DNA from: an uncultured Chloroflexia bacterium
GTDB lineage: Bacteria; Chloroflexota; Limnocylindria; QHBO01
Direction: 5' to 3'
NCBI GenBank assembly: GCA_963773695.1
Contig: CAVZCE010000004.1
Span: 391,476-455,475 of the forward strand
DNA: 64,000 nt
Shown here: positions 31,133 to 51,605 of the stretch, in pieces
How positions within the stretch are numbered: the stretch's first letter is position 1
Layout of the letters: each line of letters starts with the position of its first letter
Translations under genes and position numbers: made by a program
Notes under the pieces: model-generated
Seen by the model: only the letters and a program-made list of their open reading frames with translations
The model's database searches: none
What the model was told of the DNA's origin: nothing

Positions 31133-32791
31133 TCAGCGTACGCCGGCCATCAGCCGGCCGATCTCCTCCCGGGTGGACGTCAGCGGATCCGCCCAGCCGA
31201 TGATCGAGCCCTCGTACATGACGGCGATGCGATCGGCGAGCGAGAGCACCTCGTCGAGGTCCTCCGAGATGATGAGCACGGCTCTGCCCTGCTGGCGCTG
31301 CTCGAGGAGGCGTACGTGGATGTACTGGCCGGCGGCCACGTCGATGCCGCGCGTCGGCTGCGCCACGAGGAGCACGCCCGGGCCGCGCGACAGCTCGCGG
31401 GCAACGATGAGCTTCTGGATGTTGCCGCCCGAGAGGTTCCTGGCCGGCGTCTCGAGCGTGGGCGTCTTGATGTCGAAGGCCTCGACGAGCTCCGCGCAGC
31501 GTGTCCGGATCTGCCCGCCCCGCAGGAATCCCAGCCGGGCGTAGGGCGAACGCTGGCTGTCGACGAGCATGAGGTTCTCGGCCACGGTGAAGTCGCCGAC
31601 CACGCCGTCGCGCATCCGCTCCTCCGGGACGTAGCCCAGGCCCGCGGCGCGGGCAGCGTCCGGCCTGCCGGCGACCACCTGCGTGCCGTCGACGACGACG
31701 CTGCCCGCGGTCCAGCGCCGAAGTCCCGCGATGGCCTCCGCGAGCTCGCGCTGGCCGTTCCCGGACACCCCGGCGATGCCCACCACCTCCCCGCCGCGAA
31801 CATCCAGATCGAGATCGTGCACTGCATCGGAGCCGCGGTCACCCGGGACGTTCAGCGCGTGGACGCTGAGGCGAACGGGGGCGCCGCCGGTCGCCGGAGT
31901 GTCGCCGTCGCCGGCCTGCTCAGCCTGGTGAGCCGGAACGGGCGCCGCCGCGATCGGGACGATGGTGGCGTCCCCCACGAGCGCCGCGGCGCGGCGCGCT
32001 GTGGCGTCCGCGCGGCCGGAGGGGATCGCATGCCCGACCATCATCTCCACCAGGAGGTCGCGCGACGCCTCGCCGATCGGGAGCGTGCCCACCTTCCGAC
32101 CGTCTCGCAGGACGGTGATGCGATCCGAGAGGCTGAGGACCTCGCGGACCTTGTGCGAGATGAAGACCAGACCGGTGCCGTCGTGAGCGGCTTTCCGCAG
32201 CACGTGGAAGAGATCCTCGACCTCCTGCGGCGTGAGCACCGCGGTGGGCTCGTCGAGGATCAGCAGCGACGCGTTGCGGTACAGAGCCTTGAGGATCTCG
32301 ACCCGCTGCCGCTCCCCCACGGAGAGCTGCCAGACCTGCGCCCGCGGGTCGACCTTGAGGCCGTATCGGTCAGCAAGCTCCCCCAGGCGTGACGACACGC
32401 GGTCGAGATCGGTGCGCGGGCCACGGCTGGAGGGCAGGCCGAGGCCCACGTTCTCGGCCACCGTCAGGGTGTCCACCAGCATGAAGTGCTGGTGGATCAT
32501 GCCCACGCCATGGCGGATGGCGTCCATGGGCGAGAGGATGGGGGCAGGTTGCCCGTCGATCAGGATCTCGCCCTCGTCGGGCCGGTACAGGCCGTAGAGC
32601 ACCCGCATCAAGGTGCTCTTGCCGGCGCCGTTCTCGCCGAAGAGGGTGTGGACTTCGCCGCGACGCACGTCGAAGTCCACGCGGTCGTTGGCGACGACCC
32701 CGGCGAAGCGCTTGGTGATGCCCCGCATCTCGAGGAGCGGGATGGCGTCGCCGCGCGCCCCGGAGATCGGGGCCGTCGCCTGGAGGGTCAC
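31133..32791 (-). CDS. ABC transporter ATP-binding protein, duplicated ATPase (BMP/nucleoside-sugar importer type)
   Basis: 552 aa with two nucleotide-binding domains: GENGAGKST / LSVGERQRVEILKAL / LILDEPT, and GVSGNGQ / LSGGNIQKLIVAREL / LLVAQPTRGID. The inter-domain linker is unusually long and Ala/Pro-rich. Confidence 0.9.
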   Translation of the reverse strand: MTLQATAPISGARGDAIPLLEMRGITKRFAGVVANDRVDFDVRRGEVHTLFGENGAGKSTLMRVLYGLYRPDEGEILIDGQPAPILSPMDAIRHGVGMIHQHFMLVDTLTVAENVGLGLPSSRGPRTDLDRVSSRLGELADRYGLKVDPRAQVWQLSVGERQRVEILKALYRNASLLILDEPTAVLTPQEVEDLFHVLRKAAHDGTGLVFISHKVREVLSLSDRITVLRDGRKVGTLPIGEASRDLLVEMMVGHAIPSGRADATARRAAALVGDATIVPIAAAPVPAHQAEQAGDGDTPATGGAPVRLSVHALNVPGDRGSDAVHDLDLDVRGGEVVGIAGVSGNGQRELAEAIAGLRRWTAGSVVVDGTQVVAGRPDAARAAGLGYVPEERMRDGVVGDFTVAENLMLVDSQRSPYARLGFLRGGQIRTRCAELVEAFDIKTPTLETPARNLSGGNIQKLIVARELSRGPGVLLVAQPTRGIDVAAGQYIHVRLLEQRQQGRAVLIISEDLDEVLSLADRIAVMYEGSIIGWADPLTSTREEIGRLMAGVR

Positions 32792-32812
32792 GGTGCTACT
32801 CGTGCTCCTTCC

Positions 32813-33865
32813 TCACTGGGGAACGGTGATGGTTCCGTCGGTGATGCCCTTGATGATCTCGTCGGCCTTGGCCTTGACCTCTGCCGGCAGGGAGTAGGCG
32901 GAGTTGAACTGGATCACCTCGCCGCCGTTGCCGAGCGAGATCGTGTAGCTCGCGCCGCCGAGCGTGCCCGAACGGATGGCGGTGATGATCTGGGTGAGGA
33001 CCGGGGCCCAGGTGTACACCTGCGCGGAGACCTCGTTGCTGGGAGCAAGGCTCGCCTGGCTCCACTGGGTGCCGAACCACGGCAGGTTGTCCTCGCGAGC
33101 CACGCCGATGGCGCCGACAACCGACTGCGAGCTGCCCGTGAGGACGTCCGCACCCCCGGAGACGAATGTCTTCGCGGCGGCCGTCATGAGGCTCGCATCA
33201 CTGAACGAGCCGGTGTAGACCGGGTTGACGGTGACCGACGAGTCGATTGACTTGGCGCCGGCAACGAAGCCGTCGACGTAGAGCTTGGCATCGCCGACCG
33301 CGATGGGGCCGATGACGCCGAGCTTGTGCGACTTGCTGATCAGCGCGGCAATGGCGCCCTGCACGTAGCCGCCCTCGTTCGAGGCAGCCTGGTAGGCGAA
33401 GACGTTCGGAAGGTTGAACGTCGAGCCCGCGGTGCCCCAGGCGAACGAGACGTTCGGGAACTGCGGCGCGAGTTGCTCCACCGTCGAGCCGTACTGGGAA
33501 CCATGGGCGACGATCAGGTTGTAGCCCTCGGTCGCGTACTGGCGAATGGCGTTGCCGGCATCGTCGACCACGAAGGCGTTGTCGGTGATCGCGATCTCAA
33601 GGTTGTACGAGGACTTGAGGCTGTCCAGGGCCTCCACCATGGACTGGGTGAAGGCGAGGTCGTTCTTGGCGCTGGGCGCGACGAGGGCGACCTTCAGCAC
33701 TGGAGCCGATGACCCCGGGCTCGCGGCGCTTGACGACCCCGTCGCTGCGGCGGTGGGGCTGGCGCTGCCAGCCGCGGACTGGGAGGCAGCGCCTCCGGAA
33801 CATGCGGCCAGCGCGAATGCGAGGCCGAGCGTCAGGATGACCTGGGAAGACTTGGACCGAAGCAC
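32813..33865 (-). CDS. BMP-family (PnrA/Med-like) ABC substrate-binding lipoprotein
   Basis: GTG at 33865, 5 nt after AAGGAGG. Lipobox LAFALAAC. The body KVALVAPSAKNDLAFTQSM...GYNLIVAHGSQYG...GVIGPIAVGDAKLYVDGF is typical of basic-membrane-protein nucleoside/purine binders. Confidence 0.85.
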   Translation of the reverse strand: MLRSKSSQVILTLGLAFALAACSGGAASQSAAGSASPTAAATGSSSAASPGSSAPVLKVALVAPSAKNDLAFTQSMVEALDSLKSSYNLEIAITDNAFVVDDAGNAIRQYATEGYNLIVAHGSQYGSTVEQLAPQFPNVSFAWGTAGSTFNLPNVFAYQAASNEGGYVQGAIAALISKSHKLGVIGPIAVGDAKLYVDGFVAGAKSIDSSVTVNPVYTGSFSDASLMTAAAKTFVSGGADVLTGSSQSVVGAIGVAREDNLPWFGTQWSQASLAPSNEVSAQVYTWAPVLTQIITAIRSGTLGGASYTISLGNGGEVIQFNSAYSLPAEVKAKADEIIKGITDGTITVPQ

Positions 33866-50688: not shown

Positions 50689-50756
50689 GGGTTCCTGAAC
50701 CTCCTACAGGGCGCCGGATCGCACGATGCGTCCGGGCGTGATGCCGATTGCCCTCG

Positions 50757-51605
50757 TCATGCGTGGAGCGCGAGCTGGTTCACGCGCCGGATGACGTGGA
50801 AACTGAAGTGGCCCGGGGTGAAGTAGCTGGTCGAGTAGTCGACGACCCGCCCGTCCATGGCGTAGAGCTGCGCGGTGAACTTCAGCAGGGGGTCGCCCGC
50901 GCGAATCCTGAGCCGCCGCGTGAGCTCGGGCCCGGCGGCCTCCGCGGACAGGCGGGTGTACGAATTGCGGAGCGGCGGATCGCCGCGCCGCAGCAGCAGA
51001 TCGAGGACGGAGCCGCCGAATCCGTCCTGCAGGTCGCCCGGATCGAGGATGTCGGTCGGGACGACATCGACGAGATACGCGATCGGGAGCTCTCCGGTGA
51101 GGATGACACGCTGGACCGTGTAGACCGCGGTGCCCTCCTCCGTCCCCAGGTGCTCGGCTTCGCTGGCCCCGGCGACCCGTTCGTCAAGCTGGAGATCGCC
51201 CATGTGGATCTCGACGCCGATGCGCTCGGCCAGGGTCTCGATGCTCTCCAGCTCCTCCAGGCCCGCCTCCATGAGCGGCATGCCGGGGCTGAGGAAGGTG
51301 CCGATGCCGTGGCGGCGAACGATCATCCCGCCCTGCTCGAGCTGTGAGAGCGCCTCCCGGAGCGTCGCGCGGCTGACCCCCAGCCGCTGGCTGAGGACCG
51401 CCTCGGAAGGCAGCAGACCGCCGGCGCCCGCAAGCGTGCCGGACTGGATACCGGCGATGAGCTCGAGGGCGGCGCGCCTCGCAAGCGTGGGACCGCGCCG
51501 CACCAGCGGCGTCCCGTCCGTCCAGGGATCCGCCTTTTCCGCCAGGTCGTCAACGAACTGCCGGATCGTCGGCCGCTGGTCGTTCGCTCGCCGGACGTTA
51601 GTCAT
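50757..51605 (-). CDS. GntR-family transcriptional regulator, HutC subfamily (UTRA effector domain)
   Basis: ATG at 51605 (MTNVRRAND...). wHTH LPSEAVLSQRLGVSRATLREALSQLEQGGMIVRRHGIGTFL. A UTRA-like C-terminus follows. The upstream part of track ORF 50757..51944 is rejected. Confidence 0.85.
   Translation of the reverse strand: MTNVRRANDQRPTIRQFVDDLAEKADPWTDGTPLVRRGPTLARRAALELIAGIQSGTLAGAGGLLPSEAVLSQRLGVSRATLREALSQLEQGGMIVRRHGIGTFLSPGMPLMEAGLEELESIETLAERIGVEIHMGDLQLDERVAGASEAEHLGTEEGTAVYTVQRVILTGELPIAYLVDVVPTDILDPGDLQDGFGGSVLDLLLRRGDPPLRNSYTRLSAEAAGPELTRRLRIRAGDPLLKFTAQLYAMDGRVVDYSTSYFTPGHFSFHVIRRVNQLALHA

Follow-up and report, generated by a model that had tools for sequence, protein, structure and literature searches.

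A candidate environmental variant of the anaerobic urate-degradation cluster, with two carbamoyltransferases and a pair of PLP enzymes

Introduction

The reductive pathway of urate breakdown was reconstituted as a whole in 2025 (Li et al., PMC12507026; Liu et al., 10.1101/2025.04.24.650524). It begins with the reduction of urate to 2,8-dioxopurine, carried out by XdhD-YgfM in Escherichia coli or by the selenium-dependent DOPDH/XdhAC in Clostridium sporogenes, after which YgfK and SsnA together yield ureidomethyl-hydantoin (with 5-ureido-dihydrouracil as a minor product) and HyuA opens the ring to give 2,3-diureidopropionate (PMC12507026; 10.1101/2025.04.24.650524). YgeW then uses phosphate to release carbamoyl phosphate, from which YqeA makes ATP, and YgeY and YgeX complete the route by way of diaminopropionate to pyruvate and ammonia; in E. 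coli, phosphorolysis by YgeW takes off one ureido group and hydrolysis by YgeY the other (PMC12507026; 10.1101/2025.04.24.650524). The pathway was solved in gut bacteria and has been described as enriched in host-associated Bacillota. Here, we analyze a stretch of 64,000 nucleotides (the window) from an uncultured Chloroflexia bacterium (assembly GCA_963773695.1, contig CAVZCE010000004.1, positions 391,476 to 455,475 of the forward strand), in which a cluster of about 20 kb probably constitutes a self-regulated regulon of three operons for the oxygen-independent breakdown of urate and related purines by the reductive 2,8-dioxopurine route, in an environmental variant.

As a kind, this pathway is already known, and what is new is a widespread variant with three enzyme families of no assigned function; no description of a variant with a pair of pyridoxal phosphate (PLP) enzymes or with two transcarbamylases was found in the literature searched. 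An earlier note on this DNA had called most of the steps biochemically unassigned, which the two reconstitutions have made outdated, and had placed hydroxylation of an N-heterocycle first, where the published first step is the reduction of urate to 2,8-dioxopurine.

The cluster resembles that of E. coli in its YgfK orthologue with an adjoining SsnA-family hydrolase, its molybdenum (Mo) hydroxylase, its combination of carbamoyltransferase and carbamate kinase, a presumed end step by PLP enzymes of fold type II, and a predicted oxygen-independent chemistry. Unlike the E. coli cluster, the window is without HyuA, YgeY, YgeX and YgfM, its Mo enzyme is of the TIGR03311 type rather than XdhD, and its SsnA is truncated. 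Two carbamoyltransferases, a compact YgeW relative (OTCl) and a protein resembling aspartate carbamoyltransferase (ATCase; ATCl), stand against YgeW and the hydrolase YgeY of E. coli; two PLP enzymes, unrelated (PALP_A and PALP_B), stand against YgeX; and a HutC-type repressor and a BMP-type ABC importer stand against the sigma-54 regulator YgeV and the NCS2 permeases. Also unlike in E. coli, yqeB, yqeC and mocA are not linked to the cluster within the window.

In the architecture of its Mo enzyme, the locus resembles the clostridial version (C. sporogenes with DOPDH/XdhAC, C. difficile with UacX and UacY), which likewise has a fused Fe-S/Mo enzyme and no FAD subunit: the Mo domain of DOPDH is given in the paper as residues 307-839, the MoCoBD domains of the window's enzyme start at residue 309, and the TIGR03311 model is 848 positions long. 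The C. difficile "XdhD" is 25.6% identical to E. coli XdhD, as compared to 28% for the enzyme of the window. The clostridial clusters, unlike the window, keep HyuA, YgeY and YgeX, and it is for the clostridial version that selenium dependence has been shown. A further likeness is to phosphorylation of the arginine deiminase type (catabolic ornithine carbamoyltransferase, or OTC, with carbamate kinase), in which a ureido group is also phosphorolyzed to carbamoyl phosphate and converted to ATP; the substrates here would, however, be purine-derived ureido-propionates instead of citrulline, and OTCl is without the ornithine motif DxxxSMG.

Results

Family placement comes from profile searches, and we infer substrates and the order of steps. 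YgfK (37467..40844, plus strand, starting at ATG 37467; Pfam Fer4_20, Pyr_redox_2 and Fer4) narrowly passes the equivalog model TIGR03315 (839.2 bits against a cut-off of 835.3) and is 35% identical to E. coli YgfK over 1056 aa; it would be an NAD(P)H-dependent Fe-S flavoenzyme that reduces 2,8-dioxopurine. The Mo enzyme, a fused 2Fe-2S and molybdopterin hydroxylase of 888 aa (45135..47801, minus strand; Pfam Fer2, Fer2_2, Ald_Xan_dh_C and MoCoBD_1/2) with no FAD domain, passes TIGR03311, "selenium-dependent xanthine dehydrogenase" (993 bits against 830), and fails the XdhD-type model TIGR03313 (274 against 1102), so that the earlier label "xdhD-like" gives way to a fused, FAD-less enzyme of the TIGR03311 type. 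It is 28-30% identical to E. coli XdhD and XdhA (28% to XdhD). By its architecture it would belong to the clostridial DOPDH type, with a predicted role as urate/2,8-dioxopurine oxidoreductase; the residue Glu606 of XdhD, which Li et al. tied to the formation of 2,8-dioxopurine, lies in an XdhD-specific insertion and is not alignable with the TIGR03311 family.

Beside ygfK lies the gene for a short SsnA-like amidohydrolase of 344 aa (36410..37444, plus strand), for which SsnA is the best family, yet the match to NF005540 reaches only 244 bits against a cut-off of 444 and covers profile positions 57-340. The protein is 33% identical to E. coli SsnA and is without the roughly 55 N-terminal residues of SsnA, with the catalytic motifs HxH and HxxE intact, and its short orthologues (344-346 aa) always adjoin YgfK in other loci; its likely role is the hydrolytic opening of reduced 2,8-dioxopurine. 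A second amidohydrolase (461 aa; 43748..45133, minus strand), encoded beside the Mo enzyme, passes the 8-oxoguanine deaminase model NF006055 (643 bits against 532), as the earlier description of an 8-oxoguanine-deaminase-like hydrolase had led us to expect.

The carbamate kinase (arcC; 47809..48747, minus strand) passes both TIGR00746 (361 bits against 358) and NF009007 (379 against 266) and is 47% identical to E. coli YqeA. OTCl (325 aa; 48744..49721, minus strand; Pfam OTCace_N and OTCace) fails every curated model, in bits and cut-offs 271/288 for AOTC, 266/306 for OTC, 207/453 for YgeW NF005538 and 191/500 for TIGR03316. The gene is rightly "ygeW-like" in that its product is 36% identical to E. 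coli YgeW and has in common with it the specific motifs WAYxxSYxKPxSVPQ and KSW (the latter replacing DxxxSMG of OTC), but not in its failure of the YgeW model and its want, in the alignment, of three insertions of YgeW. As for the retention of the enterobacterial core that the earlier note had proposed, it holds for YgfK and the carbamate kinase, both of which pass their models; the Mo enzyme is not of the XdhD type, and the SsnA-like and YgeW-like proteins fall below their family cut-offs.

ATCl (317 aa; 49735..50688, minus strand) passes the ATCase model TIGR00670 (258.6 bits against 236.95), so far in keeping with its description as "pyrB-like". In ATCl and its 13 orthologues (14/14), however, Lys-84 is replaced by Tyr, Arg-229 by Pro, Gln-231 by Thr and Thr-228 by Glu (E. 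coli numbering), and the carbamoyl-phosphate site (S52-T55, R105, H134 and Q137) is kept, as is R167. We take K84, R229 and Q231 to be the aspartate-binding residues, as in established ATCase structures; with these replaced, ATCl is therefore not to be read as an anabolic PyrB. With the positive charges at positions 84 and 229 lost and Glu at 228 gained, the site would be better matched to a side chain that is either a neutral ureido group or a positively charged amino group than to the carboxylate of aspartate, and which of the two applies depends on the order in which the ureido groups are removed.

The two PLP enzymes, PALP_A (502 aa; 42219..43727, minus strand; Pfam PALP, 37.8 bits) and PALP_B (455 aa; 40855..42222, minus strand; Pfam PALP), are of the same fold type (PF00291) as YgeX. 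They have in common with the CysK/CBS/SbnA and the ThrC/threonine-deaminase clades (CBS, cystathionine beta-synthase) the fold, the PLP lysine and the phosphate-binding glycine loop and, in PALP_A, the carboxylate-holding Asn loop; they differ from these clades in being just 20-28% identical to solved structures, in falling far below all curated cut-offs, in the extensions of PALP_A and in a Cys/His cluster of PALP_B. PALP_A, which resembles CysK and CBS, scores 72.7 bits with the cysK model (cut-off 351) and has a weak match to the SbnA family; its AlphaFold2 (AF2) model (predicted local distance difference test, pLDDT, 84) shows helical extensions of about 80 residues at the N terminus and 100 at the C terminus, and its top Foldseek matches are O-acetylserine sulfhydrylases, beta-cyanoalanine synthase and CBS (target TM-score 0.7-0.8, 20-28% identity). 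Invariant in the family are the PLP lysine K112, the CysK-type Asn loop WPSTGNYC and the phosphate loop SATGSAGT, a set of residues that fits a predicted aminoacrylate chemistry on a beta-substituted alanine. PALP_B, which is ThrC-like, reaches 78 bits with NF006050 (cut-off 303); its AF2 model (pLDDT 86) matches best threonine synthases and deaminases, and also TrpB and serine and aspartate racemases, and its invariant residues are C13, C16, C30 and H41, which form the N-terminal Cys/His cluster, and K146.

Neither protein matched the diaminopropionate ammonia-lyase models at E ≤ 0.01, at which a control protein from locus L143 scored 406 bits, and sequence and fold searches of the PDB with both returned generic CysK/CBS and ThrC/deaminase/TrpB neighbors at 15-28% identity and no specific functional analogue. 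The claim that two atypical PLP enzymes replace YgeX is borne out insofar as there is no YgeX orthologue; the pair is, however, a conserved companion of these clusters, of the fold type of YgeX, and not an oddity of this locus. The simple form of the claim, in which PALP_A replaces YgeX, was dropped, given that L143 carries both PALP_A and a true YgeX. Diaminopropionate, albizziin and 3-amino-2-ureidopropionate are all 3-substituted alanines, and the most economical reading therefore places the pair at the end of the pathway, where the C3 amino acid is handled. Candidate reactions are the beta-elimination of ammonia or urea, a beta-replacement to serine followed by dehydration by PALP_B, and racemization.

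The gene arrangement is not due to chance, as the same set and order recur in locus L085 and subsets of it, across several phyla, in dozens of genomes. Close homologues of PALP_A number in the thousands, the best 120 of them all at least 73% identical, and the family is compact at 50% clustering; in a scan of one genome per species with PALP_A as query, the protein was found encoded in at least 599 species genomes, almost all of them metagenome-assembled genomes (MAGs), from Gaiellales/Thermoleophilia (with the best match, 73%), Chloroflexia, Acidobacteriota, Gemmatimonadota, Myxococcota, Acidimicrobiia, and the Alpha-, Beta- and Gammaproteobacteria. The variant is thus very widespread and not specific to this genome. 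We compared 84 genome loci with PALP_A, counting neighbors within 10 kb (the crude clustering of open reading frames (ORFs) merged paralogues, and the antisense ghost families F9, F11 and F17 were discarded). In at least 64 of the 84, the gene after PALP_A is the ThrC-like PALP_B; a TIGR03311-type xanthine dehydrogenase (XDH) at 50% identity or more is present in about 31, an SsnA-family hydrolase in 39, a carbamoyltransferase of the OTCl or YgeW type in 23, ATCl in 18 and arcC in 16.

The question of whether the exact gene set occurs elsewhere is answered by L085, whose PALP_A is 87% identical and whose gene order is identical to that of the window, importer and gntR included; its orthologue of the 8-oxoguanine-deaminase-type protein likewise has 461 aa. 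A minimal set is found in L016 (Chloroflexia), where YgfK, short SsnA and XDH lie beside PALP_A, PALP_B, ATCl, OTCl and arcC. Most telling is L071 (Rubrivivax), which encodes YgeW, YgeY and YqeA that are 83%, 82% and 75% identical to those of E. coli, along with YgfK, SsnA, HyuA and XDH, and here PALP_A and PALP_B are present and YgeX is absent; L086 is similar. Canonical YgeW, YgeY, HyuA and YqeA occur within the same clusters in L071, L143 and L159, and other related loci contain HyuA (10 loci), carbamoyltransferases of YgeW size with M20 YgeY-like peptidases, and CN-hydrolases. Elsewhere, alternative reductases, either F420-type luciferase-like (LLM) or PydA/UacX-like, adjoin the pair, and some related loci have adenine and guanine deaminases and a conventional XdhABC beside the same core. 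Li et al. noted SsnA in Actinomycetota and Chloroflexota and described UacX and F420-type enzymes as alternative reductases (PMC12507026).

A metagenome scan anchored on YgfK (with E. coli YgfK in the alignment, and with counts based on the 49 loci of at least 10 kb) recovered a full-length PALP_A-like gene (44-54% identity) in 15 of the 49 loci and a true YgeX in one, L143. Three low-GC loci, L123, L150 and L151, share one arrangement: YgfK, PALP_A-like, a ThrC-like gene of 411-413 aa, TIGR03311-like XDH and SsnA, with HyuA coming next in L123 and L150. These genes also recur in L138, where one more ORF separates PALP_A from the ThrC-like gene. It follows that the pair accompanies such clusters generally and is not peculiar to high-GC soil bacteria. 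Outside the enterobacteria, YgfK clusters usually have PALP_A as their PLP partner. YgeX is absent within 10 kb in 80 of the 84 PALP_A loci and in 48 of the 49 YgfK loci. Li et al. scored "YgeX" and "YgeW" in gene neighborhoods by Pfam domain alone (PF00291 and PF00185; PMC12507026), a procedure that, judging by the domains of the proteins described here, would not separate these PLP enzymes and carbamoyltransferases from canonical YgeX and YgeW.

Two further observations concern the composition of related loci. In L002, L003 and L004 (Chloroflexota; 4206-9810 and 17913-18578) and in L001 (6308-8299), the core is accompanied by genes for an adenine-deaminase-like protein, a class-I/II aminotransferase, a transketolase-like protein (800 aa) and a class-II aldolase, which have no counterpart in the window or in the published pathway. 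In Acidimicrobiia (L050, L053, L058, L061, L062, L070, L072, L078 and L083), PALP_A/B pairs lie in a conserved setting of housekeeping genes, among them murI, rdgB, clpP and a comM-like gene, several of the pairs adjoining a gene resembling fold-type-III D-serine dehydratases, with no purine genes within 10 kb.

Searches of the 64-kb window with E. coli proteins (tblastn) returned no match for YgeX, YgeY, HyuA, YgfM/XdhB, YqeB, YqeC, MocA or SelD, which agrees with the absence of YgeX, YgeY, HyuA and YgfM, and of genes for selenium-cofactor maturation (SelD, YqeB and YqeC), that had been claimed for this DNA. Nor were selD, yqeB, yqeC or mocA found in the 84 PALP_A genome loci, except for a weak YqeC-like match in L060. 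Homologues of YqeB, YqeC or both do occur beside YgfK in the high-GC metagenome loci L091, L094, L095 and L096, in which YgfK is 56-62% identical to that of the window, and three of these (L091, L094 and L096) also encode a short SsnA (71-74% identical).

The three units have a predicted operator in common. A 13-nt motif, CGTCAGATGACTA, with the core GTCA-N2-TGAC, occurs with at most one mismatch at three sites, in the promoter regions of all three units: O1 (GGTCAGATGACTA; 36147..36159, minus strand) on the importer side of the divergent promoter region, O2 (CGTCAGATGACTA; 36319..36331, plus strand) on the ssnA-ygfK side, and O3 (CGTCAGATGACTA; 51599..51611, minus strand) upstream of gntR. 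All three candidate operators are kept at the same places in L085. With up to two mismatches allowed, the window has five sites against 0.8 expected, a number reached by none of 100 shuffles. The sites fit predicted operators of the HutC family and would tie the three units into one regulon, presumably under the GntR/HutC-family regulator of the cluster (helix-turn-helix and UTRA domains, Pfam GntR and UTRA; 50757..51503, minus strand). Comparison with L085 also refined the start of gntR, which is most likely GTG 51503 (giving 248 aa) and not ATG 51605, as this ATG sits within the conserved operator and is followed by an in-frame stop in L085.

A second conserved element, (A/T)TGGCACTTGG within AACGGGCC(G/A)A(TT/AC)GGCACT, was noted at 36195-36215, at 36270-36290 and near 51640-51660 upstream of gntR. 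It lies about 40-50 nt from each operator copy, is kept in L085, and may serve as a promoter element or as another binding site. A weak operator-like site with two mismatches (57039-57051, minus strand) lies about 65 nt upstream of the likely start, near 57117, of a luciferase-like oxidoreductase gene (56842-57876, plus strand), and luciferase-like F420 enzymes stand in for YgfK in related clusters. We rejected this gene at about 57.1 kb as a member of the regulon on account of the two mismatches and of its being only about 30% identical to the F420-type reductases of those clusters.

In the window, which has a G+C content of about 70%, the 14 genes were confirmed by ORF listing, analysis of coding frame by G+C content at third codon positions (GC3), Pfam and NCBIfam. 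Genes, strands, the three compact units, their overlaps and the 10-nt convergence all proved to be as first described, each gene at or very near its original coordinates, with corrections to the starts of gntR, ygfK and the gene for the BMP binding protein. The minus-strand unit runs from gntR through 68 nt to ATCl and 13 nt to OTCl, whose stop overlaps the start of arcC (ATGA), and then through 7 nt to XDH, about 1 nt to the amidohydrolase and 20 nt to PALP_A, whose stop overlaps the start of PALP_B (GTGA); its end at 40855 converges, across a gap of 10 nt, on the ygfK stop at 40844. Divergent from the ssnA-like gene is the four-gene importer operon, all on the minus strand, which begins with ABC permease 2 (34874..36064; Pfam BPD_transp_2, 3e-34), followed by permease 1 (33945..34877; BPD_transp_2, 1e-38) and a BMP/PnrA-family substrate-binding protein (32813..33865; Pfam Bmp, 6e-37) with orthologues in L085 and L001. 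The start of the latter is GTG 33865 after an AAGGAGG site, which leaves a gap of 79 nt within the operon. Last comes an ATPase with two ABC domains (31133..32791; Pfam ABC_tran in two stretches), for which the best NCBIfam match is a BMP-type "B6" ABC ATPase at 514 bits (cut-off 670). Rfam and tRNA scans returned no matches inside the cluster.

The flanking genes (TauE, a sugar transporter of the major facilitator superfamily, a Glx-tRNA synthetase, Dps and a MacB-type ABC system) are unrelated to the cluster, as are heme genes further left, at 2-5476 (a HemL-like class-III aminotransferase, a HemQ-like protein of the chlorite-dismutase family and a glutamyl-tRNA reductase). Three tRNA-Gln(CTG) genes lie within 30 kb, all on the minus strand (24071-24145, 28160-28233 and 54255-54329), the third at the 3' end of an ORF for a class-I Glu/Gln-tRNA synthetase (54188-56116, minus strand) that probably ends before its first stop, or runs through the tRNA by chance. 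The other two fall within 23500-29100, where the GC3 coding signal is weak, the tested ORFs have no Pfam matches and a 58-nt direct repeat is found (27484-27541 and 28938-28995, 95% identical); this stretch may be what is left of integrated or degraded DNA. An ORF of 548 aa (59487-61133) with no Pfam match contains a fluoride riboswitch (Rfam RF01734; 59632-59716, plus strand), which scores 43 bits where the gathering score is 34.

Discussion

We consider it probable that the locus is a remodelled, environmental form of the anaerobic urate/purine system, as had first been proposed: YgfK, the Mo enzyme and the carbamate kinase pass their models, and the association with PLP enzymes and carbamoyltransferases is conserved across phyla. 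Under this reading, the BMP-type ABC importer would take up a purine base or nucleoside, and the 8-oxoguanine-deaminase-type hydrolase could turn an amino-oxopurine into urate or, alternatively, cover for the missing hydantoinase. The FAD-less TIGR03311 enzyme would reduce urate to 2,8-dioxopurine (with YgfK, speculatively, as its electron input), after which ring reduction by YgfK and opening by the short SsnA would give ureidomethyl-hydantoin or ureido-dihydrouracil. A second ring opening, to which we allot no enzyme of the locus, would lead to 2,3-diureidopropionate, from which both ureido groups might be removed by phosphorolysis, one by OTCl and the other by ATCl with its rebuilt aspartate site, and the carbamate kinase would convert the carbamoyl phosphate to ATP, yielding as many as 2 ATP for each urate. 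The two PLP enzymes, which are translationally coupled, would finally break down the resulting 3-substituted alanine, either diaminopropionate or a mono-ureido form of it, to pyruvate and ammonia; of the two, the CysK-like PALP_A may form aminoacrylate from a beta-substituted alanine and PALP_B act like ThrC or a dehydratase. All three units would be under the HutC-type repressor, bound to the GTCA-N2-TGAC operators in their promoter regions.

Several points weigh against this reading. The SsnA-like and YgeW-like genes lie below their equivalog cut-offs. The window has no hydantoinase, and one ring-opening step is unaccounted for, since several of the recurrent 8-gene sets hold only one amidohydrolase. 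The host lineages (Thermoleophilia/Gaiellales-like) are soil bacteria whose cultured members are aerobes. Genes for SelD, YqeB and YqeC are missing from the window and from the 84 genome loci alike. The two published accounts disagree on which ureido group is removed by YgeW (PMC12507026 versus 10.1101/2025.04.24.650524), which makes any division of labor between OTCl and ATCl a guess. Moreover, PALP_A is found alongside a true YgeX in L143 (NF006058, 406 bits against 276), and elsewhere with YgeY and HyuA; it is not a simple replacement of YgeX and may perform an extra step. Lastly, PALP_A/B pairs of lower identity (about 61-64% and 42-47%, respectively) occur in Ilumatobacteraceae and other Acidimicrobiia amid housekeeping genes.

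These last two observations bear on the alternative that survives best, namely that the PLP pair is accessory, serving the racemization of D/L-diaminopropionate or a ureido-amino acid, a beta-replacement salvage (serine or cysteine) or the handling of selenium or sulfur for the Mo cofactor, with the final deamination taking place elsewhere. Besides the true YgeX of L143, there are YgeX-like genes within 10 kb of PALP_A in L054, L055, L077 and L015, the Ilumatobacteraceae pairs lie beside a D-serine-dehydratase-like gene and apart from purine genes, and the racemases among the Foldseek matches of PALP_B and the weak SbnA match of PALP_A also fit such roles. We regard this as rather unlikely, given how seldom YgeX lies near PALP_A or YgfK, the invariant CysK-type Asn loop and PLP lysine, which are as expected for aminoacrylate chemistry on beta-substituted alanines, and the fact that selenium genes are not co-localized with PALP_A in the genome loci.

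Less probable still is that the same families act on another N-heterocycle (8-oxoguanine or some other oxidized or aminated purine, a pterin, or a substituted pyrimidine) and that urate is not the physiological substrate. An 8-oxoguanine-deaminase-type gene that passes NF006055 does belong to the core of the operon, SsnA is truncated and divergent, the Mo enzyme is as distant from XdhD and XdhA of E. coli as noted above, and the importer is of the BMP type rather than an NCS2 urate/xanthine permease as in E. coli. The deamination of 8-oxoguanine gives urate, however (as by the PA0142 enzyme of Pseudomonas aeruginosa), and would thus lead into the same pathway; beside the same core, related loci have adenine and guanine deaminases and a conventional XdhABC; and, in addition to the passing of TIGR03311 and TIGR03315, the clusters of L071, L143 and L159 contain canonical genes of the urate route. 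That the genes came together by chance, as an oxidative xanthine dehydrogenase, a PyrB/ArgF/ArcC set and biosynthetic ThrC and CysK, is strongly disfavored and hardly credible, even if ATCl passes the ATCase equivalog and JGI labels the PLP genes "threonine synthase" and "cysteine synthase", in view of the start/stop overlaps, the common operator at all three promoter regions, synteny kept across Actinomycetota, Chloroflexota, Acidobacteriota, Myxococcota and Proteobacteria, the lost aspartate-binding residues of ATCl, PLP genes far below the cysK and thrC cut-offs, and the absence of pyrC, carAB, pyrI or an arginine deiminase gene.

Returning to an environmental urate regulon, we offer a wider proposal tentatively, as its parts are unlikely to hold all together: that the version of E. 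coli and C. sporogenes is the minority, that most environmental bacteria use the PLP pair for a step or an end reaction absent from the published scheme, that, in the lineage of the window, ATCl turns the second ureido group into carbamoyl phosphate as well, doubling the ATP, and that in soil actinobacteria, whose cultured members are aerobes, the TIGR03311 enzyme may work without linked selenium machinery. Environmental MAGs, of which many come from soil, sediment and water, commonly encode a differently built version of the pathway, with three families that are now annotated as cysteine synthase, threonine synthase and aspartate carbamoyltransferase. Assigning these enzymes would correct a widespread misannotation and complete the map of anaerobic purine-nitrogen turnover in soils, and, for the engineering of urate-degrading probiotics, it would supply alternatives that need no HyuA, YgeY or YgeX and are predicted to yield more ATP.

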